Shown here: in pieces, positions 38,916-64,000 of the stretch
Layout of the letters: each line of letters begins with the position of its first letter
Numbering within the stretch: the first letter of the stretch is position 1
DNA from: a virus
Virus record (IMG/VR): IMGVR_UViG_3300021964_000022
Location: 32,001 to 96,000 of that record
Direction: 5' to 3' (one strand)
Length of the DNA: 64,000 bases
Made by a program: the position numbers and the translations under genes
Notes under the pieces: model-generated
Seen by the model: the letters and a program-made list of their open reading frames with translations, nothing else
Database searches by the model: none
What the model was told of the DNA's origin: nothing

Positions 38916-40715
38916 TTAATTTCTCACACTAATTAATTTTTTATACTCAGGTAAGTATAGGTACTCTATATCACTATCATATAATGTTCTTATCGCATCG
39001 TCAAGTGTTTCTACTAATGGTTCGCCGCCTAAGTTAAAACTTGTATTAAACAAAATAGGTAATCCTGTTTCATTATAAAAATCTTTTATTAAATTATAAT
39101 AATTTTTATTTTGTTCTTCTTTTACTGTTTGTATACGACATGTACCGTCAACGTGTATGATACTAGGAATCTTTTCAGCAATACCAGGTTGACAATTCAT
39201 TGCATACATCATGTGCGGTGTTTCTTCTAATCCACGCATATCAAACCATTCGTGTGCATGTTCGTGTAGTATACTACCAGCAAACGGACGGAAATATTCT
39301 CTACGCTTAACTTTGTTAACATGATCTTTACCATCTTCGTATGATGGGTCAAACAATAAACTACGATTACCTAATGCTCTCGGTCCTGATTCCGAACGTC
39401 CTTGGAACATTGCTACAATATTTTTATTTGTTAATAATTCTATAACATCTTTATTTTCTGCGTCTTTTATTTCTGCATCATATTTTTCTACTACTGATGT
39501 TATTTCCTTATCAGTATAAGAGTACGCAGGGCCTAAATATAAACTATCTGCATATGTACGCTGTTTATCATCTTGCATCATATGATGATAATGTAACATT
39601 GCCGCACCAATACATGTTCCAGCATCGCTTGAAATTGGTTCAACATACAATTTAATACCATGTTCGTTAAGTGTTTCTAAGAAGAAATAGTTTGCTACAC
39701 AGTTTAGTCCATAGCCGCCGCTGAGTACAACGTTTTTATTCCCGGTCATTTCAACTGCATTTAATATAAGTTCTAGTACACGCTGTTGTGATTCTGTTTG
39801 TACTGCATACGCCATATCTCTACGACTTTGTAATGTTGTTAAATCTTCACCATTTTCATAAACTGATTGTTCAGTTTTTAAGGCTTCATATCTGTTTTCA
39901 TTTACAACAGCACCGTTTGGATAAGTTGGAATAATTAAATTTCTATTTGCAGACACCCATTCATTACCGCCATCATCTGTATATACTGGAGGTATACCAT
40001 CGTTTGGTTTGCCGTATGGTGATAGACCCATAGTTTTACCTGCTTCAATTGGTTGCCAGCCGCAGTATTGTGTTACTGCTTCATATGCTTTTACAATTCC
40101 TGCTGTATCGTCAAGTACTAATTCGTGTGTTCCACTTTCGCCTTCACGCTCACTAGGTATATTCATCTTAGCACCCATATAAGGTCCACGACCGCCTTGG
40201 TGCTTCCATATTGTTTTAATATTTGCAGGGTATTCACAATTAAATATTGTTTCTAACTCCCATGTCATTTCAGAGGTATTACCAAAATTCATAGGAATGT
40301 ATGTGCCTGCTCCGTCTACAATAACTGCTGTTGCACTTTTAAATCCTGAGCGATAAAATGCACACGCCGCATGTAGTTTATGGTGTACAAATGCATAATC
40401 TAATACTTGAGGGTGTTCAGTACCTTCGTACTTCCTATCAATTAATCCTAATTTACGAGCAAGTCCAGTGTATATATCGTCACCGCTAAAATCAATTTTA
40501 CCTGCTGTCTCACCTAATGGTTGTGTATGTGCAATTATTAAGTAATCAATTTTATCTGTATAGTCGAGTATTTTAACCATACCTGCTAAAGGTCCGCCAT
40601 CATACTTTTGTCTACTTAATCGTTCTTCTTCTAAACTAAAAATAACTTCACCGTCTTTTAATAGACAAACTGCTCCGTTATGACCTCGTGTTATACCTGC
40701 TATCCATTGTGCCAT
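38916..40715 (-). CDS. Carbamoyltransferase (NodU/CmcH/TobZ family)
   Basis: EEERLSRQK, HH..HA, VDG.G, GKTMGL.PYG, GG..LNCVAN, GRSESGPRALGNRS, RE.FRPFA, HVDGT.R.QTV and NTSFN..GEP. Confidence 0.95.
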   Translation of the reverse strand: MAQWIAGITRGHNGAVCLLKDGEVIFSLEEERLSRQKYDGGPLAGMVKILDYTDKIDYLIIAHTQPLGETAGKIDFSGDDIYTGLARKLGLIDRKYEGTEHPQVLDYAFVHHKLHAACAFYRSGFKSATAVIVDGAGTYIPMNFGNTSEMTWELETIFNCEYPANIKTIWKHQGGRGPYMGAKMNIPSEREGESGTHELVLDDTAGIVKAYEAVTQYCGWQPIEAGKTMGLSPYGKPNDGIPPVYTDDGGNEWVSANRNLIIPTYPNGAVVNENRYEALKTEQSVYENGEDLTTLQSRRDMAYAVQTESQQRVLELILNAVEMTGNKNVVLSGGYGLNCVANYFFLETLNEHGIKLYVEPISSDAGTCIGAAMLHYHHMMQDDKQRTYADSLYLGPAYSYTDKEITSVVEKYDAEIKDAENKDVIELLTNKNIVAMFQGRSESGPRALGNRSLLFDPSYEDGKDHVNKVKRREYFRPFAGSILHEHAHEWFDMRGLEETPHMMYAMNCQPGIAEKIPSIIHVDGTCRIQTVKEEQNKNYYNLIKDFYNETGLPILFNTSFNLGGEPLVETLDDAIRTLYDSDIEYLYLPEYKKLISVRN

Positions 40716-46546: not shown

Positions 46547-49500
46547 TTACTTTAAGAAGTATTGTAGTGCTACCGGATCGCCGGATATGCCTCCTGTAAA
46601 GTTCATTTGAGCATTTACGTTTATCGGTACATCAGTTGATGTACTAATTGTATCACCAGTAATATTTACCACACCAGCAGTAATGGCGTTCACGTTAAGT
46701 GAACTAGATCCACCACCAATCTGTGAGTTAATATAAGCAATTATTGCTCTCTGTGTAGGTACAACATTATCTGAGTCTGCACTCATTGTACCATCTGTAG
46801 AAAATTCATTAATTACTGCGCCGCCAGCTCCTAAGCCAACTGCACCTAGTGATAATTCTTGCAGTCCTGCTAGTGAGAATGCGTTAACATTCAAGCTCGC
46901 TTGTCCTGTAGCCTGTTCAACGTTGAACAATCTACCTACTCTAAAGTTACCATCTTGGTCGGTACTTGTGTAGAATACTCTTCCGCCTCCATACTCTTTA
47001 ACTTCGTCAGTTGCGTCTGGCGCTTGTAAAGGTGTATTAGGATAATTTGTATCTGCAAGTCCACCTGTACCAATATCTAGGAAATCGTGTCCTGTCAAAC
47101 GTACCTGTGAATATCTAATTCTTACTTCAATAGTTGAATCATGTGTAGGAGCAGTTTCAATTCCTAAATCAGGGCTAACTTGAAGATTTGCTGTTTGGTT
47201 ACCAACACTACCTAAAAGTTCTCTTACTGCAACAATTTTAAAGAATCTGCTATCTCCGTTAATTGTTAAGTTAGATCCTTCTTGCGGTGTTGCTGTTAAT
47301 CCTTTAACATTTACATATTGTCCTGTTTGGAATAAATCTGCAAAACCATCACCTGTTGTAATTTCAGCACTTGCTGTTTCATAATCAACACCTCTGTTAC
47401 TAAATGTTGGTTGTGTTAAAACACCGTCGCCAAATCTTACTGTATGCGGAACATCTAATGTTGAACTTGGATCTGTTACAGTCATTGTAGGAGCACTTGT
47501 ATATCCACTTCCTGGATTAACAATTCTAAATTCAGTAATTCTTCCATCACTAACTTTAGCTCTTACTAATGCACCTGTACCGCCGCCACCAGTAAATGAA
47601 ACTCTTGGTTCAACAATGTATGCTGTTGTAGCATCAAGTGTTGTTTCAATTGCGTTACTAAAATGGAAAGTATCCCAACCTGCTGTTCCATCTGATTCTT
47701 TTGCTACAGTTGCAACTTTTGTATTTGCATTATAAGTTACAATTCTTGCATACTGTCCAACGCCTTTACCTGCTGTTACAACAACTCTCATTCCAACATA
47801 GTCGCCAGCCGCGGCTGATTCTGTGTTTGAAAGAGTAATTTGTGTAGTAGTTCCAGCCTGTGCTGTGTTTGTACTTGTGTTAAATCCACGTCCACCAAAT
47901 GAATCTGCGTTGCCATTTGCATCGTATGTAGATCCATCATCTGGGTTACGTAGTCTAATTTCATTAATACCACCAGTAACTACGTTTGCCGCACTTACTG
48001 CCGCTCCAAAACCTGCACCACTAAATCCATATGTTGCCGCAGTGTAGTCTTGTCCTGCATGACTATATTCTACATGAATAATAGCTTCTCCGTCAGTTAA
48101 AACATTTGTAATTTGTGCTTCTAATTTTTGGTTATCGATATTTCCTTCGATAGCTACTTCTGTCTCATCAACACCTTCAGCTACTGCACCTTGATCACCG
48201 TATGAACAGTTACCATTAGTACCACGTATCTTACCGCCGTTTTCTGAAAGGTATCCAATATGTCCGTAGTATGAGAACACTGAAACAAGTTCTGCTCTAC
48301 CTAAGTTTGTTACCCATGCACCAATACCATCACTTAGTACTTGTGTAAAGTCGTTAGCAACAATAGAGTCGTTACCGCCATCATGTAGTGATCCGTCAAC
48401 TTTAATACCTACACATGCTGTACCAAAGTTTGTTACACCTTGTACATATGGAGATCTTTTGTTGATCCATACTGCTGTATCTGCTGGTCCCCAGCCCGGA
48501 TCAAGTGATGCATAAGCACCTGCACTTGGACGTTTAGTTCCATATGCGTTGGCTGATCCTAATGTACCTGTCAAACCACTTAGTGTTGCATTACGTACAC
48601 CAGTACCGTCTCTTAGCAAGAACATGTTTTCTAATGCTGAACCGCTAACGCTATTGTGGTAGAATATTCCAGACATTAATGTTTTATAGTTACCTGTGTA
48701 TACTAGATCGTATATAAATGCACTAATATATTCTCTTACATCTCTTTCACAAGCTACTGAGTCAAAATTGTATGCTGGATAGTTAACTTCGATATACTTT
48801 GTTACGTCTCTAGCAATAAAATCTTTATTAAGTTCTAGCAATCTTACTGCCGCCATTACATCTTGATCATCAACTCTTGTATTAGTTCCGCCAAATGCTG
48901 GAGCACTTGAGTCACTTGAAACACCATTAACTTTATAGTCAATATAATCATAAAGTTGTTGTGCAAGATTTGTTAAAGTTGTTGCTGTACCTGCATTTGA
49001 ATGGGGCTTAGTTACATTTTGCGTAAGTGTATTTCCAGTTTGTGCTGTAACTGATGACCCTTGAATAATGTCATCAATAATACTTTGCATATGTAATATA
49101 CCTGCTAAACTGTAAGTAGTGTCACTACTGTCTGTAAGTGAACCTGCTGGCTTAATTCTTGTACTACGTAATTCGTCACCTAGTATAACAGTTAATGCTG
49201 GTACTCTGATTGGAAGTACTTCTTTAAATTCACCTGTCATTACACGTACTGTTTTGTGTATTTCTTGTAGTGCAGGAATAGTATAACCTCCACCTAGTGT
49301 AATTGCATTTTTTGCGTATGTGTTGTAAGTATCAAGTAACGCATAAATTCCTGTTTCAGCTGGTTTTGTTGAATCGGTAATTTGTATTGACTGATCACCT
49401 ACTGGAACACTACGTTCGTCTTGATAATTAGTTGCCGGTGCAGTACTATTAATTACATTTTCTATTAGTGTGTACATGTAATTAAGTGCCGCAACGTTTT

Positions 49501-51349
49501 GTGCTTCGCCACCTACGTTAAACCAATCGCCGTCTGTTTGATTTGCAAATGTTGTTGCAACTCTACGCATATTTGTGTTTCCACCATGCCTTAAGTCTAA
49601 GGCCATTGCATCTACTACAAATCCAATTAGTCTTTCAAACTCTGCTTGGCTAAAGTTAAATCCAATAAAGAACGGAGTAATCTGGTTAACAATTTGTTCT
49701 AAACACCAGTTACCTAATTCTTTTTGTATAAAGCTTCTGTTTATTTCTAAAAGATATGCAGAGTTTGGATTTTTTGGTCCGTTTAATATTTGTTCACATG
49801 CATATCTAACTGTTTTAAATGGTCTGTCAAGTGTTACACCGTATGTAGGTGCTTTACTATCTACACCATTACTTGCAACATAATAAATATCTTCTTGCTT
49901 ACCAAAATCTACCCATTGCGGAATACCTGCACTGCTAACTGAAAGAACTTGACCTTCATCACCAATTGGTAATCTTGCTGGTCCTGATCCACTAAAGTAA
50001 AGTAAATCGCCGTCAGTTGTTAATGCACTTTCTTCAGCACCTGATGCTAGGTTATTCCAATATGTACCTGCTGAATCAACTGATGGTTTATTTCCTGCCG
50101 CTGATGTGTGTGCAAGGATACAAATGTAACTTATTAATCCTTCACGTACTGCATCACCTGCATCGTAGAAAGTAGCATCTGTCCAAGTATTTTTCCATTC
50201 AATACCTTGGTTTAATCTTTCCCAATAAGACGCATTTGGCGGACGGAATCCGCTGTGGTTAGATGTAGCAAGATAAGTATATCCACCTAGTCTAACAACA
50301 TCACCAACTCTGTATTCTTGGTTAGTTGAGTCATCGCCCCAAAGGCCTCTATTTCTAAATCCTGTTGTTAATAATTCCCAAGTTGAATCAATACCTGGTT
50401 GAATATTAAAGTTGTTGCTTGCCGCAACATACATATATCCACCAAAAGTAACAAAGTCACCTGGTTGATAATTTGTATTATAATCCCATGTATCTTCAAA
50501 TTCTAAACCTGGAACAAAAACTGCCCAATTATCTTCGTCAGCTTTTAATGTACCTGTTCCTGAATCATCAGCCGCTACAACTGAAGTATGATAAGTTGTA
50601 CAAATCCAAAGTGTTGCACCGTATTTTACAACGTCATTAATTTTATATCTTGTATTATTTCCCCAAGCGCCTTTGTATTCAAAGCCTTGGTTCATATAAT
50701 CCCATTTAGATTGATCTGCTTCTAAGCCAATTGCATTAGTTGCACCTGAAGTATGACCTTGGTTACAAACATATACAGTTCCGCCATATTTTACAATGTC
50801 TTGACTTTTATATCTTGTGCTAGGAGCCCATGGGCCTTTCCAGTCAACACCTTCTGAGAACAAATCCCAACTTACAATATTAGCTTCAAGTCCTAATGCA
50901 TCAGTAGCCGCGGCAGTGTGACCAGTGTTACAAAAGTAAATGTTTCCGCCATATTTGACCAAGTCGTTTGCTTTGTATGTTTGTCCAGCTAACCATGCGG
51001 AGCGCCATTCGATAGATGTAGCAAACAAATCCCATTTTTCTTGATCGTCTTCTAGAATTGAACCAGCAGTATGTCCTGTGTTACAGATATACAAAATACC
51101 ACCATATGCAACAATATCGTTTTGTTTATAAAAAGTTGCTGTGGTCCAATCGTTTTTCCATTCTTGACCATCACTAAATTTATTCCAGTTACTTTCGTCT
51201 GTGTAAAAATTTGATGTAGATGTGTGTCCCGTAATACAAACGTATGTACGACCACCATATCTGATTATGTCATCTTTTAGGTATGAAGTAGAACCTGTCC
51301 AGTCCCCTTTCCATATAAACCTAATTCTTCCTAATTTAAATTCTGCCAT
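46547..51349 (-). CDS. Large tail/fibre structural protein with N-terminal CBM5/12-like repeats, 1600 aa
   Basis: About 8 repeats of W....Y..ND.V.YGG..Y.C...HT; beta-helix-like region (ANDFTQVLSDGIG); GHDFLDIGTG and STDQDGNFRVG. GATAAATA at 51377-51384. Confidence 0.8.
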   Translation of the reverse strand: MAEFKLGRIRFIWKGDWTGSTSYLKDDIIRYGGRTYVCITGHTSTSNFYTDESNWNKFSDGQEWKNDWTTATFYKQNDIVAYGGILYICNTGHTAGSILEDDQEKWDLFATSIEWRSAWLAGQTYKANDLVKYGGNIYFCNTGHTAAATDALGLEANIVSWDLFSEGVDWKGPWAPSTRYKSQDIVKYGGTVYVCNQGHTSGATNAIGLEADQSKWDYMNQGFEYKGAWGNNTRYKINDVVKYGATLWICTTYHTSVVAADDSGTGTLKADEDNWAVFVPGLEFEDTWDYNTNYQPGDFVTFGGYMYVAASNNFNIQPGIDSTWELLTTGFRNRGLWGDDSTNQEYRVGDVVRLGGYTYLATSNHSGFRPPNASYWERLNQGIEWKNTWTDATFYDAGDAVREGLISYICILAHTSAAGNKPSVDSAGTYWNNLASGAEESALTTDGDLLYFSGSGPARLPIGDEGQVLSVSSAGIPQWVDFGKQEDIYYVASNGVDSKAPTYGVTLDRPFKTVRYACEQILNGPKNPNSAYLLEINRSFIQKELGNWCLEQIVNQITPFFIGFNFSQAEFERLIGFVVDAMALDLRHGGNTNMRRVATTFANQTDGDWFNVGGEAQNVAALNYMYTLIENVINSTAPATNYQDERSVPVGDQSIQITDSTKPAETGIYALLDTYNTYAKNAITLGGGYTIPALQEIHKTVRVMTGEFKEVLPIRVPALTVILGDELRSTRIKPAGSLTDSSDTTYSLAGILHMQSIIDDIIQGSSVTAQTGNTLTQNVTKPHSNAGTATTLTNLAQQLYDYIDYKVNGVSSDSSAPAFGGTNTRVDDQDVMAAVRLLELNKDFIARDVTKYIEVNYPAYNFDSVACERDVREYISAFIYDLVYTGNYKTLMSGIFYHNSVSGSALENMFLLRDGTGVRNATLSGLTGTLGSANAYGTKRPSAGAYASLDPGWGPADTAVWINKRSPYVQGVTNFGTACVGIKVDGSLHDGGNDSIVANDFTQVLSDGIGAWVTNLGRAELVSVFSYYGHIGYLSENGGKIRGTNGNCSYGDQGAVAEGVDETEVAIEGNIDNQKLEAQITNVLTDGEAIIHVEYSHAGQDYTAATYGFSGAGFGAAVSAANVVTGGINEIRLRNPDDGSTYDANGNADSFGGRGFNTSTNTAQAGTTTQITLSNTESAAAGDYVGMRVVVTAGKGVGQYARIVTYNANTKVATVAKESDGTAGWDTFHFSNAIETTLDATTAYIVEPRVSFTGGGGTGALVRAKVSDGRITEFRIVNPGSGYTSAPTMTVTDPSSTLDVPHTVRFGDGVLTQPTFSNRGVDYETASAEITTGDGFADLFQTGQYVNVKGLTATPQEGSNLTINGDSRFFKIVAVRELLGSVGNQTANLQVSPDLGIETAPTHDSTIEVRIRYSQVRLTGHDFLDIGTGGLADTNYPNTPLQAPDATDEVKEYGGGRVFYTSTDQDGNFRVGRLFNVEQATGQASLNVNAFSLAGLQELSLGAVGLGAGGAVINEFSTDGTMSADSDNVVPTQRAIIAYINSQIGGGSSSLNVNAITAGVVNITGDTISTSTDVPINVNAQMNFTGGISGDPVALQYFLK

Positions 51350-51385: not shown

Positions 51386-54300
51386 TTACCCGTTAAACTC
51401 ATTGCGATCATCCATTCCGTGAATGAAGAAACCGTGTGCCGCCATATCACCATCTGGTGATCCGCTTGTTAAGTTCATCTGGTTGGTTACGTTTATTATA
51501 CCTTCAGTAGTTGATATCTCTTGTCCTTGCACTACTACAACACCTGCTGTAATTGCGTTAGTAAACAATGTTGCACCACCGCCTGTAATTCTATTTTCTA
51601 AGTATGCTTTGATTGCTCTTTGCGTTGGTATTACACTATCGCTATTAGCAGTCATTGTATTATCTGTTGAAAATTCTTTAATTGTTGCTTGAGTACCACC
51701 AACTTGGATACCACCCAATCTCAATTCATCTAATCCACCTAAGTCAAAGAAATCTGCATTAAGTGTTACACCACCTGTTGACTGTGAAACTCTAAATAGT
51801 TCGCCTACTCTAAAGTTACCATCTTGGTCAGTACTTGTGTAGAATACTCTTCCGCCATTATTTTCAACAATTTCATTTGCTTGTCTTGTTTCATTTGCGG
51901 CAGATCTACCAAACTTATATAATGTTGGATAGTTTGTATCTGTAAAGTTACCAGTACCAATATCTAGGAAATCATGTCCTGTAAGTCTACAGCTACTATA
52001 TCTTTCTCTAAATGTAATTGCTTCTTCATGATCCGGAGATGTAGCTACTGCTAATATCGGACTAATTTGAAGTTGAGCACTAAAGTTTGGTGCAGTTCCT
52101 GAACTACTTAATACTTTAACAATTTTATAAAGTGTATCAGGTTGTCCTGCAAAGTTAATGTTTGATCCTGCTTTTGGTACTTTTGTTGCACCTTTAATTT
52201 GAAGTTTATTACCTTTTTGGTATTCATCTGCAAAACCAGTTCCAGTCAATGTAGCAATCATTGTTAAGTAATCTGATCCTCTATTATACATTTCCGGTTG
52301 TGCAAGTACTTTGTCATTTAAGTTTACTACAAGAGTTGGTTCTGTATACTCTTCAGGATCAAATACAACAACACTAGGTTGTGTAGTGTATCCACTACCT
52401 GGATCCATAATAACAAACTCACTAATATTATTGTTTGCAATATTAACTCTTAAATGTGCAGTTTTACCACCTTGTATTCTTTCACCAGTAGCACTTGTAC
52501 CTTTTGTTAAGAATGTTGGTCTGTCTAAATATATTCCACCTGCAACAGATGTTTGGTTAGCATTAGGACTTCCAATTACTGTCCAATGTTTACCTTCATT
52601 ACTGTATGCATTTGTACCTTGAGCACTTGCTACTACAAATACACCACCTGCATATGCTATGGTCCAATCTTCTCTAACGCTGTCGCCTTTGATATCGGAA
52701 TCTTGCCAATTAACAGCATCATCACTATAAAACATTCTATCACTGTTGTCCATTGTTAGTGTCCAAGTATTATTACCATATGCAACATCACTGTACACTT
52801 CTGGTGAACTAGGTGCTGGTAAAGTTCCAGCCGTCCAGCTTGATCCGTCATTTGTTGAATATTCATAATATCCATCTGAACTAAACACAAACCAAATTCC
52901 TTGTCCAAACTCAACGCCTGTCCATGCTCTGCTTGCATTTAATGTTAGTGCTGTCCAACTTGTAGGAGCAACTGTACTATCTCCGCCTGTTCCAATCGTA
53001 CCAATATATGCTGTGTCTGATCCGGTAGCTACAACCATAATTTTATCATCATTAGAACCACCTTGTGCAATACCAGTCCAGTTAAGTGTATCAGGTAAAG
53101 TAGAAGTGTCCCATGATGTTCCATCATTTGAATAATGGAAGTTTGCTGAGCCGCCTGCCGCAAACATCATTAAGTCGCCGCGTTTTCCTCTAGCGTCCCA
53201 TGTATCACTTTCGCTAACGTTAGTTGTTGTCCATGTATCGCCACCGTCTGCTGTAACATAAACATCGTTAGTTCCACTTAATGGATAATAAAACTTTCCT
53301 GCGCCAAACCCAGAAAGTCCAAGTCCTGCTTGAACAACTGTTCCTGTTTGTGTCCATGGAGGACTACTTACTGTAACACGAGGTTCAATTTCGTAGAATG
53401 TACTATCATCTAGTACAAATTGTATTGGTCTACCCGGAATAAGTTGATCCCATCCTGCTGTTCCAGTACTATACCTATAAATTGTTGCAGTATTAGTATC
53501 TTCATCGTATGCTTGTATATAACCGTATTGACCTGCTCCTGCACCGTTTGTAATATAAACTGCCATTCCTGTTAACTGTGCCGAAGTTCTTGCTTCAGCG
53601 TTTGCAATTAATAATGTACTATCTGTGCCGCCTCTAGCATAGTTGCTAATAAACTTATATCCAGCTCCACCTATTTGAGATGAATCACTTGGTACTGTTA
53701 AACGAATATTGCTAATAGCATTATTTCTAAACTCAGTCCAACGTGCATCAATGCCTGTTCCTGGACCAGTATAACTTGCTGTTACAGTTGTATAATCTTG
53801 ACCTGCATGTTCATATGCATAATGAAGTATTTCATTACCATCAGTCATTATTCTATCAATTCTTGCTTCGCCACTTTGGTTATTTACTTGTGCTGAAATT
53901 GGAACTTCGTTTGCATCGAATCCTTCAGCAACACTACCAAATGTTCCGTAAGAGTTGTTACCGTTTGTTGCACGTAATATACCACCATTCTCTGCTAGAT
54001 ATCCAATATGGTTATAATATGTAAACACACTAACAAGTTCTGATTTACCTAAATTAGTTGCCCAATATCCGATACCGTCACTTAATACTTGTGTAAAGTC
54101 GTTAGCAACCATAGATTTATTACCACCGTTGTGTAATGCTCCATCAATTTTCATTCCTACACAAGCAGTACCTATTGTTGTAACACCTTGCACATAAGTT
54201 GATTTATTTCTAACCCAAACACTTTGATCTTCTGGACCAGTGCCCGGATCTAATGAAACATAAGCACCTGCTGTAGTTCTTTTTGTGCCATAATCATTAG

Positions 54301-56737
54301 CATCTGTTAACACTCCAGTTAATCCTTTAAGTGTTAGTCTTCTTAGACCACACCCGTTTCTAGCTAGGAAGAAATTAGATTGTGCGTTACTAGATGGAAC
54401 AATTAATTGTTCTTGAGGTTGTGCTATTCCATGTACATAAGTTTTTTCACCTAGTATAATATCTTGTCCAGTAATTGCTGGACGTATTGTAGTTGAACGT
54501 AATTCGTCTCCAACAATAGCTACATCTTCTGGAATACTAATTGGAAGTATTTCTGCATACTCGCCTGTCATTACACGTATAGTTGCTCCGCCTCTTGCTG
54601 GTGGTGCAACCAGTGTAGGTAGACTACCTAAACCGTTTGTAATTGTATCTGTAATACCTGTAAATAATGTTGTAATTCTAGTAGATACACCTGTTTCCGC
54701 TTCTACGCCTGCTGGAATATTTTGTGTGTATACTAGTCCTAATGCTGTGTGTGCATTTCCTGGAAGAATGAAATTATTAATTAAATCTCTTGCATATTCC
54801 AAAGCCGCTACAGTTTGAGCTTCTTGTCCATCAACTAAACTTACTGCACCATTATAATATGTTTTAGCATGTTCTCTTGAAAATAAGTTTCCACTGTATG
54901 TTAAATCTTGTATCATACCAGCAATAATTATTGCTGTATCTCTTTCGCATTTTGCACTGTCGTATGTAAATCCAGACCATATACCTGCACCGCCTGCAAT
55001 TTGTGCATCGACCCAAGCAACAGTTTCTTGTGCAACATAGTTTTGATTAAGTTGCATTCTGTATGTTGCATTATCGTAATATCTTGTTCTTAGTCCTGAA
55101 CGTGTTGCTTCGTCTGCAAGAATATAGTTACATGCGTATCTAACTGTTCTGAATGGTGCATTTAATGTTCCGCCTACAGTTGGATCATCAACACCGTTTT
55201 CACCGACGTAATAAACTTTGTCAGCAAAATCAATTGTGTCCCATGAAGGTAATCCACTAGTAGATCTTATAATTTGACCTGATTTACCAATTGCTAGTCT
55301 CAGTGTGTCAACTGCTGTTGAATCTTGATCATCAAATGTTTTTAAGTCACCCTTTACAGCTAGTTTATTTGTAAGGGTACCTTGAATCATAATTTTCCAA
55401 TATGTTTCATCTGGTACATCTTGGTCTAAGTCTGGTCTACTAGCAGACGCATCTGATCTGTGGTAGGCTAATGCAACATAACTTGTACCTCTCCAAGTTA
55501 CAATGTCGCCTTCGTAATACTCTACGTTGTCTTCCCATGAATCTCTAAAATCACGTCCGTCGATTAATTTTTCCCAAGTTACAGAAGAACTATCAGGTCT
55601 TACGTTTAAATTATCAACTAATGCAATATAAATATTTCCAGCCCATCTTACAACATCACCTGTTAGGTATTGTACAAAGCTACTGTCTTCACCTTGCATG
55701 TTCCAAGTTTGTCTAAATTTATAACCAGTAAATGTTACATCCCAGTCATCAGTACTTGTGCTAGGTGCGGAAGATACATTATAAGTTTTTGCTTTGTAAG
55801 TATAACCACCATATTGTACAACATCGCCTGGTTGATATCTTTCAGCTGGTTGCCAATTTCCTTCGTATTCTGTTCCTGGTAAGTATATTTCCCAGTTTGC
55901 TGTATCTTCAGCAAAAGTTGTAGATGTGTGTGCAGTAATACATTTGTTTAGATTTGGTCCGCGTCTTACAATGTCATTAACTTTATATTTTGTATTGCCT
56001 TCGTGTAAACTTTTGTATTCGATACCATCTATTAAAATTTCCCATTTGGATTGATCTTGCTCTAATCCAAGAGTAATATTATCAGCAGATGTATGTCCTA
56101 AGATACAACGGTAAGTAATACCACCATATTTTACAAGATCACCTACTCTATATCTTGAACCAATGCTCCATGTGCCTTTCCAAGCATCACTGTCTGCAAT
56201 TACAGCCCAATCACTTTGGTTTGCTTCTAAGCCTGATGCAACAGTACTGGCAGAAATATGTTGATTCAATGCTTTATAAACAATACCGCTATATCTTACA
56301 ATATCATTTCTTTTGTAAAGTGTATTAACGCTCCAAGTTGTTTTCCAGTCTGCATCAGAAACAGCAACAATAATCCATTTATTTTGGTCTGCAACTAATC
56401 CGTCTGTGTCTGAACTAAATGTAGGTGAACTTGTATGTCCTTCGATACATTTGTAAATACCTGAACCATATTTTACAATATTACCTGCAGAATAGTTAGT
56501 TGAAACTGTCCAGTTTCCTCTCCATTCAGAACCGTCTGATTGTAGTTGCCATTTTGGACTTGCTGGTGAAACATCTGAACCTTCTAAGTCATTTTCGAAA
56601 GTTGCTGATGTATGTACTCTTAATGAGACAAACGTTTTACCGTCAACTTCGATCATATCATCTATGTTATAGTCATAGCCTGAAATCCAAGGACCTCTCC
56701 ACGTAAATCTAATTCTACTTAATTTAAAATCTGCCAT
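51386..56737 (-). CDS. Large tail/fibre structural protein, paralog of 46547-51349, with extra BNR/Asp-box-like repeats, 1783 aa
   Basis: Same architecture plus T.DGG.TW, S.DG.SW and STNDG.SW repeats. ATAAATA at 56763-56769. Confidence 0.8.
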   Translation of the reverse strand: MADFKLSRIRFTWRGPWISGYDYNIDDMIEVDGKTFVSLRVHTSATFENDLEGSDVSPASPKWQLQSDGSEWRGNWTVSTNYSAGNIVKYGSGIYKCIEGHTSSPTFSSDTDGLVADQNKWIIVAVSDADWKTTWSVNTLYKRNDIVRYSGIVYKALNQHISASTVASGLEANQSDWAVIADSDAWKGTWSIGSRYRVGDLVKYGGITYRCILGHTSADNITLGLEQDQSKWEILIDGIEYKSLHEGNTKYKVNDIVRRGPNLNKCITAHTSTTFAEDTANWEIYLPGTEYEGNWQPAERYQPGDVVQYGGYTYKAKTYNVSSAPSTSTDDWDVTFTGYKFRQTWNMQGEDSSFVQYLTGDVVRWAGNIYIALVDNLNVRPDSSSVTWEKLIDGRDFRDSWEDNVEYYEGDIVTWRGTSYVALAYHRSDASASRPDLDQDVPDETYWKIMIQGTLTNKLAVKGDLKTFDDQDSTAVDTLRLAIGKSGQIIRSTSGLPSWDTIDFADKVYYVGENGVDDPTVGGTLNAPFRTVRYACNYILADEATRSGLRTRYYDNATYRMQLNQNYVAQETVAWVDAQIAGGAGIWSGFTYDSAKCERDTAIIIAGMIQDLTYSGNLFSREHAKTYYNGAVSLVDGQEAQTVAALEYARDLINNFILPGNAHTALGLVYTQNIPAGVEAETGVSTRITTLFTGITDTITNGLGSLPTLVAPPARGGATIRVMTGEYAEILPISIPEDVAIVGDELRSTTIRPAITGQDIILGEKTYVHGIAQPQEQLIVPSSNAQSNFFLARNGCGLRRLTLKGLTGVLTDANDYGTKRTTAGAYVSLDPGTGPEDQSVWVRNKSTYVQGVTTIGTACVGMKIDGALHNGGNKSMVANDFTQVLSDGIGYWATNLGKSELVSVFTYYNHIGYLAENGGILRATNGNNSYGTFGSVAEGFDANEVPISAQVNNQSGEARIDRIMTDGNEILHYAYEHAGQDYTTVTASYTGPGTGIDARWTEFRNNAISNIRLTVPSDSSQIGGAGYKFISNYARGGTDSTLLIANAEARTSAQLTGMAVYITNGAGAGQYGYIQAYDEDTNTATIYRYSTGTAGWDQLIPGRPIQFVLDDSTFYEIEPRVTVSSPPWTQTGTVVQAGLGLSGFGAGKFYYPLSGTNDVYVTADGGDTWTTTNVSESDTWDARGKRGDLMMFAAGGSANFHYSNDGTSWDTSTLPDTLNWTGIAQGGSNDDKIMVVATGSDTAYIGTIGTGGDSTVAPTSWTALTLNASRAWTGVEFGQGIWFVFSSDGYYEYSTNDGSSWTAGTLPAPSSPEVYSDVAYGNNTWTLTMDNSDRMFYSDDAVNWQDSDIKGDSVREDWTIAYAGGVFVVASAQGTNAYSNEGKHWTVIGSPNANQTSVAGGIYLDRPTFLTKGTSATGERIQGGKTAHLRVNIANNNISEFVIMDPGSGYTTQPSVVVFDPEEYTEPTLVVNLNDKVLAQPEMYNRGSDYLTMIATLTGTGFADEYQKGNKLQIKGATKVPKAGSNINFAGQPDTLYKIVKVLSSSGTAPNFSAQLQISPILAVATSPDHEEAITFRERYSSCRLTGHDFLDIGTGNFTDTNYPTLYKFGRSAANETRQANEIVENNGGRVFYTSTDQDGNFRVGELFRVSQSTGGVTLNADFFDLGGLDELRLGGIQVGGTQATIKEFSTDNTMTANSDSVIPTQRAIKAYLENRITGGGATLFTNAITAGVVVVQGQEISTTEGIINVTNQMNLTSGSPDGDMAAHGFFIHGMDDRNEFNG

Positions 56738-57463: not shown

Positions 57464-60400
57464 CTAAATTGTTAATGCAAGTTTAATTGCTATTTCCTCT
57501 GCATCATTATAAGTAACAGCACCTGTTGCACCAGCTACTGACACCCAGTTATTTGAAACATCGTATATTTCAACTCTGTCTTCAATACTATTGTAACGCA
57601 TCATACCCGTTTCTGGTGTAGGATGTCTGTTTGCGTTAGTACCAACCGGAATAACAAATCCGCCAGTACCTTCAAGTTTAAAGTATCCTGTTCCTTGTTG
57701 ACGTAAAATTGTTGTTTCGCCGTCAATTAAGTTAGTTATAGTACTTCCGTTAAAACTAAAGTTTTCAATACTTATTGTACCTGTACCATTAGCTCTTAAT
57801 TCAAGGTCCTCGTTAGTAGTGATAGTTTCTAATACATTACCATGTACAGCAATATCATCAACTTCTAATCTAACAACATTAAATCTTTGCTCACTAACAT
57901 CAGCTACTAGTGCTCCGCCTGCATAAAAACGTAGTACGTTATCGTTTGCACCTGGAGTTAATTCTGGTGTAATATACGTGTCTCTATCAACATCATATAC
58001 ACCACCTAAGTTAGTCCATGCACCGTCATATGCTTCAAAAACTCCTGCTTCGGTATTGTATCTAATCATACCTGGTTCAGGACTTGCTGGACGTTGAGCA
58101 GTTGTACCTTTTGGTAGAACTAAACTTCCTGTACCTGTTACAGTAACAATCTCCGAACTTGGATCAAGAACTATATCTCCGCTTGCATTACTTATCGTAT
58201 TATTAGCAAATTCTAAGTTATCAATTACAATTTTACCAGTTCCGTTTGCAGATAAATTGATATCACCGTTACTTGAGTTACTTTGAATGTAATTGTCATT
58301 GATTTCTAACGTATCAACAAGCATTTTTCCTACATGGAATTCTGACCAACTTAGTACATCAGTACCTATTGTATATGTGTCATCTGTTGCTGGTATTAAA
58401 TTACTGTCAATTCTGCCGCCAATTTGTATACTATCTGTAGCTTCATCGCCAATTGTAATATTGCCGCCGATTGTAACATTACCTGTAACATCTAAGTTAC
58501 CTGTAACATTTACATTATCTTGTAGATTAATTATTCCTGTACTAGCATCTAAGTTTAAATCTCCTGAAACAGTTTCAACTGTATTACCACTAAATTTAAC
58601 ATTTCCTGTTTGTACTTTTGTACCGTCAATAATTGTTGTATTTGACCCGTCTGTAAAAGTAATACCTTGGTTATTATTGAATAAAAATTCTGCATTAGTA
58701 AAAGATACTTCGCCAGTTGATTGATCTACTCTAAATAAATCGCCAACTCTAAAATCACCTTTATGGTCAACTGTACTGTAATAAACATTAGCACCGTTTG
58801 CTTTTACAACTTCATTAGACTGTACAACTGAACTTACATCATTGCTGTTGTCTTTGCCTGCACCTATATATGCTAAGTTTTGTCCTATTAAGTACATTAC
58901 TACGCCTGGACCGTCTCCGTATACGCCATATTGTCCATACACGTTTGCACTTGCAATACTTCTTATTTCTGCACCAAAGTCACTAAGATCTGAAAGTGTA
59001 ATATTTGTTGCTGTTCCGCCACCACTAAATCTTACATCTTGTACAAATGTATCATCGTCATCCATAATTACACTTCCAACATCTCCGTCAAAATGTAATA
59101 GTAATACTGTGTTTAATGTTCCTGGTAGAGCCGCAGTTGGTGTAGTTAATGATGTTACTCCTGCGCCTTTTTGTATTCTAAATTCGTCAACTTTTGCAGT
59201 TAAGAAATTTGTTAAACTATAATCTGTTCCAAACTTAAATGGTTTCGTTGTGCCAAAATCTGTTGTGTTAGCTGTAGTTGCAACAAGCGTTCCGTCAATA
59301 AACATTCTTAGTGTTCCACTTACTCTGCTTATTGCAATATGATACCAAGCACTGTCATTAAGAACATTTGCTGGATTTACAATATTAGTTGTACCGTTAT
59401 CTAAGTAAAGTTGATTGTCTGCACCTACATATAAATGAAGTGCATTATCTGTTGCACTGCCAGCTCTAAAATCAAACAAAGTTTGAACTGCATCAACTGC
59501 ATCTAAGTTAACAAAAAATTCAATTTGTAAATCGCCAGTGCCAAACCCAAAGTCTGGTTGAGAAATTGTTTCTAAATAATCTGTTGAGCCTAGTAAGTAT
59601 AAAGATTCTGTACCAATTTGACTAATTGCTCCAAGTGCGGCATTTCCTTTAGCACTTACAGTTTTCTTTGCTCTACTAGGTGTAGTTACAAATCCTGTAA
59701 CTTTACCATCTATAAAAAAGTAGTTTCCATCTCTTGAACTAATTGTTCCTGATGCTACACTAGAACCGCCTGCATCGTACAATGTAATTGTTTCACTTGC
59801 ACTAGGATTACCTGTTAGTCCTGAAACTTTTAATCTTGTTTTACCGTTACCTTTTAGGCCAGCGGCACTATCAAATGCATCAATACCTCTATCAGCATAG
59901 TATGAAAAACTGTTTAACCATTCTACTCTTGCACCGTTAGTTGCTCTTAAAACTTTTGCACCCGGACATATAAATGTACAACTATGGAACAGCATTGCCG
60001 CTTCTCTACTTGAAGCAGTTGCAACACTACCGTCTAGATATATACCTGCGCCTGCATCACCTTCGTCATATCCTAGTGGATCGTCGCTTGATGTTACTGT
60101 ACCTTTTGTGATTACACTTACGTTTCTAACGTAAGGTGATCTTTCTGTTACTGTAAAGTTTGGTGCAAATCTAAATGCATAACCTTTGTTGTTACCTGAA
60201 TCAAAATAATAATTTTTAATAGTAACTTCTTCAACAGTTGTTTCACCATTCATATGAAATACGTCTTCGGATTGTGTTGTACTATCTGGAGTAATTGTTA
60301 CACTTCTTAAACTTTGTCCTCTAATTGTAACTCCTGCCGGAACTACTAATGGTAATGTTTCGTTGTAATCACCTGGATAAATGTAAACTGTGTCACCTGC

Positions 60401-61171
60401 TGTTGCAAGTTGTAATGCTTTTCCAATAGTAAAAACAGGATCCTGAGGATGTGTTCCTGTTGCTGTGTCAAGACCTTGACTTGATACGTATAATATATTT
60501 CCTGGTCTAGAAACTAGATCTAAATCGCCAAAGTCAATGTCGTTTGTTTGTAATGTGTCAACATATGTATTGTTTAAGTATGCTGTTGACCAACGCTTAG
60601 TTGCTGTACCTAAACTATATGTGTCGTTTGCATCTGGAATAATATCACTAGCAATCTCTGCATTAAGGATAATATTGTCTGTGTCAGCGTCACCAATTTG
60701 AATATCACCGTCTGCTGATATATTTCCTGTTGCATGAAGGTTACCTGTAATGTTTGTATTACCTTCAATGTTTATTGTTCCAGTTCCGTTTGCACGAATA
60801 TACAAATCTTCGTTTGTATTTTTATTTTCGATAAAACTGTTATTAATTTCTAAATCACCGACTTCAACTCTGTTACCAATTAAAACACTGTCGGCTGTAG
60901 TTACTGTAAATTCTTGTGCGGTTGTCGTAATGGAGTTATTGTTACCGTCAATAGTAACATTACCTACATTAAAAACATTATTTGTAATTTCTAGATCGGA
61001 TACACGAGCAACACCTGCTACGTCTAATGCATATTGAGGATTAGTTGTCCTAACGCCTATGCGACGGTTTGTAACATCTAAATATAAAAGGTCTGTCTCA
61101 AAAGCTAGATCTACACCGTTACGTAATAGATCGGACTTTAAGAGCGGACCGGATATGCGACCAATTGCCAT
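57464..61171 (-). CDS. Large tail structural protein with LamG/ConA-like lectin domain, 1235 aa
   Basis: RIG..T..P...LDV.G, DFGFGTGD.QIEF, WYHIAISR.SG..RMFIDG, DEFRI.KG, T.LLLHFDG; shared DHKGDFRVGDLF.VDQ.TG motif; two RP...GM.RYN modules. Confidence 0.8.
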   Translation of the reverse strand: MAIGRISGPLLKSDLLRNGVDLAFETDLLYLDVTNRRIGVRTTNPQYALDVAGVARVSDLEITNNVFNVGNVTIDGNNNSITTTAQEFTVTTADSVLIGNRVEVGDLEINNSFIENKNTNEDLYIRANGTGTINIEGNTNITGNLHATGNISADGDIQIGDADTDNIILNAEIASDIIPDANDTYSLGTATKRWSTAYLNNTYVDTLQTNDIDFGDLDLVSRPGNILYVSSQGLDTATGTHPQDPVFTIGKALQLATAGDTVYIYPGDYNETLPLVVPAGVTIRGQSLRSVTITPDSTTQSEDVFHMNGETTVEEVTIKNYYFDSGNNKGYAFRFAPNFTVTERSPYVRNVSVITKGTVTSSDDPLGYDEGDAGAGIYLDGSVATASSREAAMLFHSCTFICPGAKVLRATNGARVEWLNSFSYYADRGIDAFDSAAGLKGNGKTRLKVSGLTGNPSASETITLYDAGGSSVASGTISSRDGNYFFIDGKVTGFVTTPSRAKKTVSAKGNAALGAISQIGTESLYLLGSTDYLETISQPDFGFGTGDLQIEFFVNLDAVDAVQTLFDFRAGSATDNALHLYVGADNQLYLDNGTTNIVNPANVLNDSAWYHIAISRVSGTLRMFIDGTLVATTANTTDFGTTKPFKFGTDYSLTNFLTAKVDEFRIQKGAGVTSLTTPTAALPGTLNTVLLLHFDGDVGSVIMDDDDTFVQDVRFSGGGTATNITLSDLSDFGAEIRSIASANVYGQYGVYGDGPGVVMYLIGQNLAYIGAGKDNSNDVSSVVQSNEVVKANGANVYYSTVDHKGDFRVGDLFRVDQSTGEVSFTNAEFLFNNNQGITFTDGSNTTIIDGTKVQTGNVKFSGNTVETVSGDLNLDASTGIINLQDNVNVTGNLDVTGNVTIGGNITIGDEATDSIQIGGRIDSNLIPATDDTYTIGTDVLSWSEFHVGKMLVDTLEINDNYIQSNSSNGDINLSANGTGKIVIDNLEFANNTISNASGDIVLDPSSEIVTVTGTGSLVLPKGTTAQRPASPEPGMIRYNTEAGVFEAYDGAWTNLGGVYDVDRDTYITPELTPGANDNVLRFYAGGALVADVSEQRFNVVRLEVDDIAVHGNVLETITTNEDLELRANGTGTISIENFSFNGSTITNLIDGETTILRQQGTGYFKLEGTGGFVIPVGTNANRHPTPETGMMRYNSIEDRVEIYDVSNNWVSVAGATGAVTYNDAEEIAIKLALTI

Positions 61172-61286
61172 CTTCTCTCCTCAATACGGGGATCCTGTCC
61201 CTCTAGCCCGATTTTCAACATACGTTCTTTGCCGGCTAACCACAGTTTGTCCTGCAGGACTTGGTCCGTCTTATCTGCATTAGTAG
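61172..61286 (-). ncRNA. Candidate structured 5' leader RNA (cis-regulatory)
   Basis: About 50% GC (55/109 by hand) in an AT-rich genome. Nested helices ACGG/CCGU, GUCCUG/CAGGAU and UAGCC/GGCUA lie between a CTAAATA late-like promoter (61287-61293) and a GAGGAG RBS. Confidence 0.5.
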
Positions 61287-61306
61287 TATTTAGCCAAAAG
61301 GTGGAT

Positions 61307-64000
61307 TTAGTCTAGTATAATGTTCCAAAGGAAGCTCAAATCACTGACATCCTCTTCAAGGATTGCTTCAACTTGTCCAGCCGCATTTATCCATTGTGTG
61401 CCGTTATAAGTTTCAAGATATTCGTTTGTTGTACTAAAACGTGTATGGCCAACTTCTGGAGTTGACGGACGTTGTGCATCTGTTCCAAATGGTACAACCA
61501 TACCACTTACGTTGTCAAATTTAACAAATGCTTCGCCATTATCATTTGTTAAATTAAATGAAAATGTTGGTGCATTAGTAGTATCAGTAAGTATACTATC
61601 TCTAAATGTTAAAGTTTCTATATTAGTTGTACCAGTTCCGTTTGAACGTAATATTACATTTTGGTTATCACTTACTGCTGATACAGTATTTCCGTCAATA
61701 TAAAATTGGTTGCCTGAACTAAATCCGTTTGATTCTAATAATGTGCCATTTAGAGTGTGATTAGTAACATTGTTTGTTGTAAACTGGAATTGATTATTTG
61801 ATAGATCTAAGAATGTATTACGGTCTGTATCAAATATTCCTGCAAGAGATACTGCGCCGCCGCCGACTACACCTTCAAAAGAATCATAAACTGTATTATA
61901 TCTTATTGCTCCAGTTGTACTAGGACGCTGTGCATTTGTACCTTTTGATAAAGTAAGGTTACTAGTAGCATCCATTTTTAATGAATTTGTTACTGAAATC
62001 TCTACATCTCTATTTGTTCCGCCAACGTTGTTAGTTACTGTAGTCCAATAATCTAATACAGGTTGTGTTAAAGGAAAATCATATGTTTCATTTTCTATAA
62101 TAGGAATAATAGTAGTATCAGTTGCTTCTAGTATTGCTCTTGTATAGGTACTCCATTTATTTGTAAGCGTACTATCTCCACTTCTCCAAGCCTGTGATCC
62201 TGCATAAGAACTAATACCTAAATACAAGTATTCCACAACAAGTTTGTCATAGCTAATACCTATTGGATCTGTGTACCATGCAAAATCAGGATAACTATAA
62301 CCAGGTAAGCCACCTGCTTGATAGCCTCCTCTAGCAATATCCATTGCCGCCGTAAGCACTGTAGGTCTCGATGTTCCTAAGTCACTATATGCATTTACAT
62401 ATCCTTTTTCAATTATAAAATATCTAAGCAATCTTTCTAATGTAACGTCTCTTAATCCTCCTACACTATCTCCTAAGAAACCGTTCATTTCATTTTCATA
62501 AACACTTGTAGTTCTTAGTTTCCAATTGCCTAAAGCAGATGTAATTGCAGTTTCATCTGCAACATTTCCATAAATTGCAATTCCTTTAAGGCCATCTGAA
62601 AATTCTGCGTATAAAGTACTATTATCAATTACATTGTCGTAATCATTATCAAAATATCCTGCTATTAAATTTGCTGTATGAAACAGTGCATCTCTACTTA
62701 CACTAGCAGTTGCAAATATAGGAATATTATTCCAAACTATACAATATGGAAAATATTGTTTAAGTGATTCAAAACTATTAAAAATAGGAATCACATTTTC
62801 GTCTGTTTCAATAATAGTAAATTCTCCTGTTGGACTAAATCTACCAATAATTTTATTATCTTTTAATTCAACATTTTCAAAATTTACACTACCAGTTCCG
62901 TTAGCTCTAAATTCTAAATTACTGTTTGAGTCTGTTGTTGAAATTGTTGTTGGAGTTAATCTAATATCATTTACATTAACCTGTGAGCCATATCCTGTAC
63001 GCCATGCAAGATCTTCTGTTCCTAATACGTTACCTTCGCTTGAACCAGGTACTAAATTTTGACTAAATGGTGTGTTAAAGTCAATAGTATCTGTAGGATC
63101 ATCTCCGATTGTAATTATACTTCCGTTAATTACACCATTTCCTGTAATATCAAAATTGCCTGTAGTGTTTACATTTCCGTTAAAATTAATTTCGGTTGTA
63201 GCTGACTTTAAATTTAAATCAGCATTAGTACTATAAATTGTATTTCCAGTAACAACAATATTATCTAAACTTAAACGATTACTATCAATAAACACTTCGC
63301 TAGTATCTGTTAATATCCTTACGACAGAGTTACTTGCAAAGATGCTTTCAATATCAAAACTTGTTCTGCCATTCTTTTGATCAACTGAAAATAAATCACC
63401 AACATTAAAATTGCCAGCTTCGTCCTGCGATGTATAATAAACTTTGCCGCTATTTGCTTCTACAACTTTATTTGCATCAATAGTTAATGTATTATCATTA
63501 GAAAGATCTTTTCCTGCACCTATGTATGCAAAATTGCCGTTAATAACATATGCTAAACAATCAGCACCATCTGATTTAATACCATAATTTCCATACACTG
63601 CGGCACTTGCTATACTTCTCAATTCGCCGCCAAATATACGTGTACTATCAGGTAATAAATTACCTACTGTACCTTGTTCAATTAAAATTCCGTGATTAGC
63701 AAAATAACTAAAACTGTTTAACCATTCAACTCTAACACCGTCACGCATGGTCAATGCGTCAACACCAGGAGTAATAAATGTAACTCCATAAAATAACATA
63801 CTAGCTCTTGGACTTGCTTGAGTTACTGCACTTCCGTCCACTAAGCATCCTTTACCTGCATCTCCGCTTCCAAAACCTCTAGGATCACTTGCACTTATAG
63901 CTGTACCTTTTGTTAAAACTGTACAATTTTTAATGTAAGGACTACGTTCCATAATACTTGCATTTTCTTTAAATCTAAATGCATACCCTTTGTCATTACC
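61307..64000 (-). CDS. Large tail structural protein, paralog of 57464-61171 (3' part; start lies beyond the window)
   Basis: The frame stays open upstream of 63952 (GNDKGYAFRFKENASIMERSPY, matching the paralog's GNNKGYAFRFAPNFTVTERSPY). Also RVEWLNSFSY, E.RSIASA.VYG and QDEAGNFNVGDLF. Confidence 0.85.
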   Translation of the reverse strand, partial: GNDKGYAFRFKENASIMERSPYIKNCTVLTKGTAISASDPRGFGSGDAGKGCLVDGSAVTQASPRASMLFYGVTFITPGVDALTMRDGVRVEWLNSFSYFANHGILIEQGTVGNLLPDSTRIFGGELRSIASAAVYGNYGIKSDGADCLAYVINGNFAYIGAGKDLSNDNTLTIDANKVVEANSGKVYYTSQDEAGNFNVGDLFSVDQKNGRTSFDIESIFASNSVVRILTDTSEVFIDSNRLSLDNIVVTGNTIYSTNADLNLKSATTEINFNGNVNTTGNFDITGNGVINGSIITIGDDPTDTIDFNTPFSQNLVPGSSEGNVLGTEDLAWRTGYGSQVNVNDIRLTPTTISTTDSNSNLEFRANGTGSVNFENVELKDNKIIGRFSPTGEFTIIETDENVIPIFNSFESLKQYFPYCIVWNNIPIFATASVSRDALFHTANLIAGYFDNDYDNVIDNSTLYAEFSDGLKGIAIYGNVADETAITSALGNWKLRTTSVYENEMNGFLGDSVGGLRDVTLERLLRYFIIEKGYVNAYSDLGTSRPTVLTAAMDIARGGYQAGGLPGYSYPDFAWYTDPIGISYDKLVVEYLYLGISSYAGSQAWRSGDSTLTNKWSTYTRAILEATDTTIIPIIENETYDFPLTQPVLDYWTTVTNNVGGTNRDVEISVTNSLKMDATSNLTLSKGTNAQRPSTTGAIRYNTVYDSFEGVVGGGAVSLAGIFDTDRNTFLDLSNNQFQFTTNNVTNHTLNGTLLESNGFSSGNQFYIDGNTVSAVSDNQNVILRSNGTGTTNIETLTFRDSILTDTTNAPTFSFNLTNDNGEAFVKFDNVSGMVVPFGTDAQRPSTPEVGHTRFSTTNEYLETYNGTQWINAAGQVEAILEEDVSDLSFLWNIILD

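Follow-up and report, generated by a model that had tools for sequence, protein, structure and literature searches.

The E. coli alpha-operon (rpsM) leader is an S4 translational operator (Rfam Alpha_RBS, RF00140) in which long-range pairing joins an upstream hairpin to bases immediately beyond the start codon. The structure is a nested pseudoknot that leaves the Shine-Dalgarno sequence formally unpaired, and control is exerted by trapping or occluding the 30S subunit. In phages T4, T2, and RB69, the pseudoknot of the gene 32 leader is an autogenous operator, followed by a long unstructured A/U-rich stretch where gp32 polymerizes. The initiation hairpins of T4 genes 25 and 38 lie between a distant Shine-Dalgarno sequence and the AUG, bring both together, and set translation efficiency. 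To our knowledge, very few translational operators of phage late structural genes have been described, and we know of none from the uncultured aquatic giant T4-like phages that are abundant in oceans and lakes.

Here we set beside these systems a leader RNA that precedes one baseplate/fiber-like virion gene in such phages. The comparison of homologous sequences establishes a pseudoknotted fold, its conservation, its fixed position relative to the ribosome-binding site, and its restriction to a single gene, and it makes the leader a candidate for control of translation in cis.

Locus and genome context

The leader lies in a 64,000-nt stretch of DNA, here called the window, from a 110-kb IMG/VR virus record rated 30% complete by CheckV. 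Its genes include a T4-type structural module (terminase, sheath, tube, and baseplate), and its closest cultured sheath proteins are those of the giant phages Phosso and PA5oct (41 to 45% identity). The locus comprises the following features:

61172-61306, minus strand: 135-nt gap, bounded by the stop codon (61307) of the preceding ORF and by the ATG (61171) of a 1235-aa ORF
57464-61171, minus strand: 1235-aa ORF served by the leader, encoding a baseplate-wedge/fiber-like virion protein with a Laminin_G_3 domain
61307-63952, minus strand: upstream fiber-like ORF, open at the window edge

An earlier note on this sequence had correctly located the gap and its raised GC content (0.48, versus 0.32 to 0.39 for the window). 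It had also pointed to the GAGGAG at 61182-61177, to a 12-nt palindrome at 61249-61260, and to a 14-codon upstream ORF (uORF) at 61280-61236 that begins 6 nt past CTAAATA (61293-61287), all of which are present.

The 1235-aa gene product, which begins MAIGRISGPLLK, was identified as a baseplate wedge subunit (PHROG, E value 2.5e-189) with a Laminin_G_3 domain (Pfam, E value 4.7e-17). Residues 1 to 217 had no match in cultured phages except for two short stretches (residues 145 to 226), and a PDB sequence search with the N terminus returned nothing useful. The upstream protein looks paralogous to the 1235-aa protein because both match the same PHROG families. Its ORF is open past the window edge (63952-64000; L286:200-520), and its true start is therefore probably upstream of the ATG at 63952. 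In the next 1.2 kb, we found neither a copy of the leader nor an Rfam match.

Several other minus-strand genes of the window are worth recording. A tryptophan-halogenase-like gene (29658-31256; PHROG E value 2.5e-104) and a Nol-like carbamoyltransferase gene (38916-40715; E value 3.4e-170) lie inside the virion structural module, an unusual location for modification or auxiliary enzymes. Two giant fiber-like proteins of 1600 and 1783 aa (46547-51349 and 51386-56737) each carry five to six CBM_5_12 chitin/carbohydrate-binding modules near the N terminus, which hints at binding to polysaccharide surfaces. Between 43153 and 45703 there are three tandem paralogues of 278 to 281 aa with alike glycine-rich C-terminal coding ends.

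Distribution of the leader

When IMG/VR was queried with residues 1 to 300 of the 1235-aa protein, 296 relatives were retrieved, and a second search, from a distant member, retrieved 289. Conservation of the 160 nt that precede the gene is striking, even among loci whose protein N termini share only 42 to 57% identity, and the hairpin stems in these homologous leaders vary in a compensatory manner. Every locus that extends upstream of the gene carries the leader except L045, a relative of the gene with an ordinary short late leader. About 300 contigs of uncultured aquatic T4-like giant phages each carry a single copy of the leader, and it was found in none of the cultured phages.

Searches with the leader itself pointed to the same gene. 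A scan of IMG/VR for the conserved core pattern returned at least 119 stretches; among the matches listed, the true ones all precede this gene, whose product has the consensus start M-A/S-x-x-G-R-I-S-G-P-L-L-K, and about nine are chance matches in unrelated sequence. In the true matches that were read, the leader always lies between a late-promoter box (NTAAATA) and the Shine-Dalgarno sequence of the gene. A covariance model built from 40 protein-retrieved leaders gave exactly one match per source in 100 sources (862 kb, both strands) and one match in the 110-kb record containing the window.

We also scanned prokaryotic genomes, one for each of about 185,000 species, with a stringent two-part pattern. 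All five matches precede the same phage gene, on contigs of up to 335 kb binned as Neomarinimicrobiota, Dehalococcoidia, Chitinophagales, and Crocinitomicaceae, four unrelated groups. We read these as mis-binned phage contigs, and they therefore name no host. Two contigs of a single "Neomarinimicrobiota" MAG (L281, PBPT01000016.1, 335 kb; L284, PBPT01000082.1, 153 kb) have an identical leader and gene start; both probably derive from giant phages and were binned with bacterial sequence.

Conserved fold

The predicted fold has four parts, a hairpin (P1), an H-type pseudoknot, a second hairpin (P3), and a free Shine-Dalgarno sequence, made up of the following elements in 5' to 3' order of the RNA:

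61253-61279, minus strand: P1, the 5'-terminal hairpin, pairing 61279-61275 with 61257-61253 and 61270-61268 with 61260-61258
61267-61261, minus strand: P1 apical loop GGACCAA (the GACCA loop)
61245-61252, minus strand: single-stranded joiner GGACAAAC, whose AAAC is nearly invariant (alignments A1 and A2)
61242-61244, minus strand: 5' strand of pseudoknot stem S1, UGU, pairing with 61232-61230
61240-61241, minus strand: pseudoknot loop L1, GG, nearly invariant in the alignments
61233-61239, minus strand: 5' strand of P2 (stem S2), UUAGCCG, forming 7 bp with 61210-61203 and leaving one bulged base
61230-61232, minus strand: 3' strand of S1, GCA, directly adjoining P2
61211-61229, minus strand: loop L3, A-rich strands around an optional hairpin P2a (61226-61224/61219-61217)
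61203-61210, minus strand: 3' strand of P2 (C, a bulged G, and GGCUAG)
61189-61201, minus strand: P3 hairpin, GGGA-CAGGA-UCCC
61177-61182, minus strand: Shine-Dalgarno sequence GAGGAG, outside every conserved helix

Folded by itself, the window leader does no better than shuffled sequence (minimum free energy of -32.1 kcal/mol; shuffles averaged -34.1 kcal/mol, for a z score of +0.55, and 137 of 200 were at least as stable), and the evidence for the fold comes from its homologues. In a model-fitted alignment of 100 distinct leaders, 93.5% of the cells pair versus 81.0% in shuffles (0 of 500 as high), and 201 cells are changed on both sides versus 43.5 in shuffles. A structure-blind MAFFT alignment of protein-retrieved leaders gave nearly the same values (93.5% versus 81.9% paired and 83 versus 21 double-changed cells; 0/500). 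Sliding the pair partners drops pairing to 34 to 47%.

Stem S1 was not in the covariance model, yet 100% of its cells are paired in both A1 and A2. Among 63 unbiased distinct leaders, its first pair (61244/61230) is U-A 39 times, A-U 15 times, and C-G 9 times, with zero exceptions and at least 7 independent double-sided changes on the protein tree; its third pair is U.G, C-G, or U-A. P2 covaries at four pairs, with 9 to 12 changes per pair on the tree and 93 to 95% canonical pairing, and mutual information recovered its seventh pair (C-G in 47, A-U in 37, G.U in 9, and G-C in 6). The 3-bp S1 and P2 interleave and abut. Their strands follow the order S1a, S2a, S1b, S2b that defines an H-type pseudoknot, both helices covary, and the two nucleotides that cross the 7-bp stem fit the geometry of such knots.

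RNAalifold treats the region differently. On the raw MAFFT alignment, it returned only a 6-pair local hairpin, which contains the three S1 pairs, and on the model-fitted alignment, it recovered P1 and P3 and preferred a local hairpin of S1 plus GG/CC pairs over P2. This preference arises because RNAalifold cannot model knots, and we retain P2 because covarying pairs lie on both sides of the invariant CC/GG.

The flanking hairpins differ in how freely they vary. In P1, the five outer pairs are 93.8% paired with double-sided changes at all of them; the stem sequence varies freely, while the loop GACC is kept in about 105 of 109 distinct leaders, and the whole hairpin is missing in L064, L134, and L283. 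P3 is 98.4% paired with double-sided changes at all four pairs, including variants with G-C to C-G swaps (GGCA/UGCC and GCGA/UCGC), and a second, unrelated P3 type has a 5-bp CCGUG/CACGG stem. In L3, a long form holds a hairpin with varied stems and a short form replaces the whole loop with a 9- to 10-nt string, such that P2a is absent, single, or double across leaders. As judged by this comparison, the invariant portion of the element is the knot plus P3. In one leader (L163, from IMGVR_UViG_3300021356_000009), the P1 loop CUUGGU is perfectly complementary to the P2a loop ACCAAG, and a loop-loop kiss between P1 and P2a is possible in this single lineage.

The fold drawn in the earlier note, three nested helices, was mostly wrong, as it missed the pseudoknot, P1, and P3. 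Its third helix (61234-38/61204-08) is conserved and forms the core of P2. Its first and second helices are specific to the window, pairing in 56.8% of cells in 100 homologous leaders versus 56.7% in shuffles (243/500). The proposed competition between the palindrome and the second helix did not survive the comparison either: the palindrome is absent from homologues and consists of the 3' strand of P1 plus the next four bases (GGAC), a by-product that does not recur.

The central proposal of that note, an unrecognized cis-regulatory RNA before a large virion gene, is strongly supported by the conservation, the compensatory changes, and the lack of any Rfam match. Two of the checks it had suggested bear on this. 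The homologous leaders are conserved in sequence and structure and show compensatory changes, and the Rfam search gave zero matches, so that the element is uncatalogued there: none of the 4,227 models of Rfam 15 matched anywhere in the window at gathering thresholds, none matched 61100-61400 with lax filters (cmscan, E value of ≤10), and none matched at the element in ten homologous loci. The further proposals, that the leader controls tail protein stoichiometry and that it does so as a protein-binding operator or as a riboswitch, are matters of interpretation, taken up below.

Promoter and predicted transcript start

One further feature precedes P1:

61287-61293, minus strand: late-promoter box CTAAATA, which is ATAAATA in most homologues

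In the homologous leaders printed in our comparison, [A/C]TAAATA stands 6 to 8 nt before the base of P1. Among the 52 occurrences of [ACT]TAAATA in the window, 18 are in sense orientation and ≤130 nt upstream of a start codon, versus about 5% expected. Most of the other boxes are 12 to 41 nt from their start codons, three are at 69, 80, and 109 nt, and the box of the leader itself is 122 nt away. The window thus has what marks a T4-type late promoter, a TATAAATA-like box that recurs in sense orientation upstream of late genes. T4 late promoters have this box at about -10, a geometry that would put the transcript start near 61281, about two bases before P1. With such a start, the element would constitute the whole untranslated region.

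Link to translation initiation

The element is held at a fixed distance from the initiation site. The end of P3 lies 14 to 21 nt from the start codon (mode of 17) in both P3 types, and the Shine-Dalgarno-to-start spacer is 4 to 8 nt in 125 of 125 distinct leaders. In the window, P3 is followed by CGUAUU, then by GAGGAG, and then by the AUG (61171). Constraint at the RNA level continues into the coding region:

61136-61171, minus strand: start codon and codons 2 to 12 of the 1235-aa ORF

Across about 120 diverged homologues, the synonymous sites of codons 4 to 12 are nearly frozen (GGU CGN ... GGU CCG CUC), against the codon preference of the phage. Gly4 is GGT in 120 of 121 sequences and Gly8 in 113 of 121, while invariant Gly columns further downstream use GGT in only 28 to 55%. 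Arg5 is CGN in 120 of 121, its third base being evenly A, T, or C, whereas late genes of the window use AGA for 72% of Arg. CCG accounts for 99 of 116 Pro9 codons and CTC for 86 of 119 Leu10 codons.

Codons 1 to 12 contain two GGUC words, 12 nt apart, and the UUGGUC at 61164-61159 (codons 3 to 5) is complementary to the P1 loop. A duplex between the loop and these codons has a mean predicted energy of -9.3 kcal/mol versus -3.9 kcal/mol with shuffled loops. Its 4-bp core (GACC/GGUC) is invariant and 100% paired, and its flanking pairs are canonical in 83% versus 68% in shuffles and in 43% versus 28%. Loop and codons have changed jointly in some lineages (GACCUA/UAGGUC and GACCG/CGGUC). The lineages that have lost the first GGUC and encode Gly-Arg as GGA AGA are those whose loop lacks GACC (L175) or is inverted (L163, L166, and L188), and in the latter three, the inverted loop, the reverse complement of GACC, matches codons 1 to 3 instead. 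On the other side, about ten lineages have a mismatch at a flanking pair, covariation of the flanking pairs is not significant once phylogeny is allowed for (the tree-aware tests being underpowered), and the P1 loop may possibly pair instead with UGGUY inside the pseudoknot, where the bases are invariant. Because the supporting observations are offset by these mismatches, the underpowered tests, and the alternative UGGUY pairing, we hold the loop-to-codon helix to be likely but unproven.

A mutual-information search for pairing between the leader and third codon positions returned only within-codon correlations. Duplexes between the spacer before the AUG and codons 9 to 11 are more stable in their own combinations than when cross-paired (-7.9 versus -6.4 kcal/mol), with some suggestive changes. 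We keep this helix as a lead, since its register differs between lineages.

Interpretation and alternative explanations

We moderately favor the interpretation that the conserved pseudoknotted leader acts in cis to control the translation of one baseplate/fiber-like virion gene, a view that rests on comparison of sequences. The gap would be the entire 5' untranslated region, about 110 nt, of the late mRNA for this gene, with transcription beginning a few bases past the T4-type late-promoter box. The RNA would open with P1 and its GACCA loop, followed by the H-type pseudoknot, in which S1 is next to P2, a two-G loop crosses P2, and the A-rich loop may hold an extra hairpin. P3 would end 17 nt before the start codon and leave the Shine-Dalgarno sequence unpaired.

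The effect on translation initiation would then be exerted in cis. Simple sequestration is not supported, because the Shine-Dalgarno sequence and the AUG are in no conserved helix. We propose that the ribosome-binding site is closed into the knotted domain by the loop-to-codon pairing or by a bound phage protein, a precedent for such closure being pseudoknot operators, where the 30S subunit is either occluded or trapped. Either way, the output of a low-copy virion protein would be tuned down from a strong late promoter, and the element may be a self-acting, built-in attenuator or the operator of a putative protein partner. The three lineages without P1, together with the short leader of L045, indicate that the element is dispensable.

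A more ambitious version of cis control is conceivable, and we rate it as possible at best: the leader may be a phage riboregulator of a new class, one that responds to a specific trans input (a small molecule, the ribosome itself, or a protein encoded by phage or host) and in which the P1 loop switches between GGU targets in the pseudoknot and in codons 3 to 5. If this were true, uncultured giant phages would gate the synthesis of a host-recognition/baseplate protein late in infection.

The leader may alternatively be a constitutive mRNA stability or processing element, in which the 5' hairpin and the knot shield either the late mRNA or the 3' end of the preceding transcript against host RNases, taking no regulatory input and leaving initiation unaffected. 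We consider this rather unlikely. The start of P1 about 2 nt from the predicted 5' end fits such a role, as 5'-terminal stem-loops stabilize E. coli mRNAs, and so do the free Shine-Dalgarno sequence and the lack of a conserved alternative "off" structure. However, P1 is the part that lineages can dispense with (L064, L134, and L283), and what is conserved is the knot together with its exact distance of 17 nt from the start codon. The conservation of unpaired nucleotides and of the first 12 codons goes far past the needs of a generic stabilizer.

A riboswitch for a metabolite or second messenger, with the pseudoknot as its aptamer, seems improbable to us. The size of the element and its pattern of conservation are aptamer-like, with a compact pseudoknot and many invariant unpaired bases, and two further candidate cis-regulatory RNAs, freshwater-2 and manA, are present in related phages. 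Nonetheless, a metabolite riboswitch is argued against by three observations. Every instance precedes a single structural gene, with no metabolic or transport theme; the matches in the prokaryote collection, in four unrelated groups, occur only on contigs with the same phage gene; and there is no expression platform, neither a U-tract terminator nor a conserved anti-Shine-Dalgarno sequence. In addition, no Rfam aptamer matched at an E value of ≤10.

Still less probable is a promoter-proximal RNA that acts on RNA polymerase, as HK022 put and EAR do in processive antitermination, or a small RNA that acts in trans. The element sits directly downstream of a promoter and heads a series of very long genes, which would suit such a role. 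The fixed spacing of the Shine-Dalgarno sequence and start codon and the constraint that extends into the ORF point instead to the ribosome-binding site, the downstream giant genes have late boxes of their own, and no terminator follows the element.

We give slightly less credence again to a self-cleaving ribozyme or an RNase-guided processing site that separates two paralogous fiber messages. The element does lie between two co-directional late genes, and its topology, a hairpin with a pseudoknotted loop followed by a hairpin, recalls that of pistol ribozymes. The Rfam models for pistol, hatchet, twister-sister, hammerhead, and HDV-like ribozymes gave no match at an E value of ≤10, however, and the promoter box of the element argues that it is the 5' end of a primary transcript. 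The ribozyme, the antitermination RNA, and the pure stabilizer each fit fewer facts than translational control.

The uORF attenuator put forward in the earlier note, in which translation of the 14-codon frame would control the main ORF, can be dismissed: its AUG, part of the conserved base of P1, is found in 40 of 60 leaders, near +2 of the predicted transcript, and is missing in the other 20, the length of its frame varies between 1 and more than 37 codons, and beyond MQ the encoded peptides show no conservation. That AUG has no Shine-Dalgarno sequence, and changes at the P1 base are compensatory in the manner of RNA pairs, unlike codons. We likewise reject a protein-coding leader, as there is no conserved frame; the recurrent peptide LEGQDPR is the translation of conserved P2-P3 bases, and a start codon is missing in most leaders. 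By this comparison, the uORF and the palindrome are both by-products of the leader RNA.

Significance and comparison with known systems

If translational control is the correct reading, the leader marks one fiber/baseplate paralogue as needing special control of dosage or timing, and a ligand or protein partner, if one exists, would represent a new regulatory circuit of virion assembly. The covariance model provides a handle with which this phage group and gene can be found in metagenomes. Its compactness and clear covariation recommend the leader for structure probing and crystallography.

Our literature search found nothing specific to this leader, and the comparison with catalogued RNAs covered the models of Rfam 15. 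A 2023 survey (PMC10690425) lists 8,495 unnamed candidates from IMG/VR and cites the gene 32 leader pseudoknot of T4, T2, and RB69. The candidates of 2023 and the uncultured aquatic phage RNAs freshwater-2 (RF02980) and manA (RF01745) are the same kind of object as the leader and were discovered by the same route. Related loci carry freshwater-2 and manA at other positions, and the leader itself matches neither. We observed freshwater-2 at L067:537-607, L111:5652-5727, and L166:4242-4309, with scores of 49 to 58 bits (gathering score of 49.9), and a subthreshold manA match on one contig (L166:3969-4171). These RNAs lie upstream of other small genes, and the phage group therefore uses several structured leaders.

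The described systems closest to the leader share parts of its design. Like T4 genes 25 and 38, the gene studied here is a T4-type baseplate/tail-fiber assembly gene with RNA structure in its initiation region, but the spacing between Shine-Dalgarno sequence and AUG is normal (4 to 8 nt) and the structure lies upstream of both. In the gene 32 leader, as in the leader described here, an H-type pseudoknot precedes the Shine-Dalgarno sequence and lies close to the 5' end of a T4-type phage mRNA. The sequences are unrelated, however, and the knot described here abuts the Shine-Dalgarno sequence, keeps a fixed 17-nt distance to the start codon, and serves a late virion gene. The alpha-operon leader is similar in having a leader hairpin with a long-range partner just past the start codon, which in the phage is a candidate pairing, and a Shine-Dalgarno sequence that is formally unpaired. 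It differs in that there is no sequence or model match between the two (cmscan, E value of ≤10), in that it serves a ribosomal-protein operon rather than a phage late structural gene, and in that the hairpin of the phage leader is set apart from the Shine-Dalgarno sequence by P3 and a separate H-type pseudoknot.
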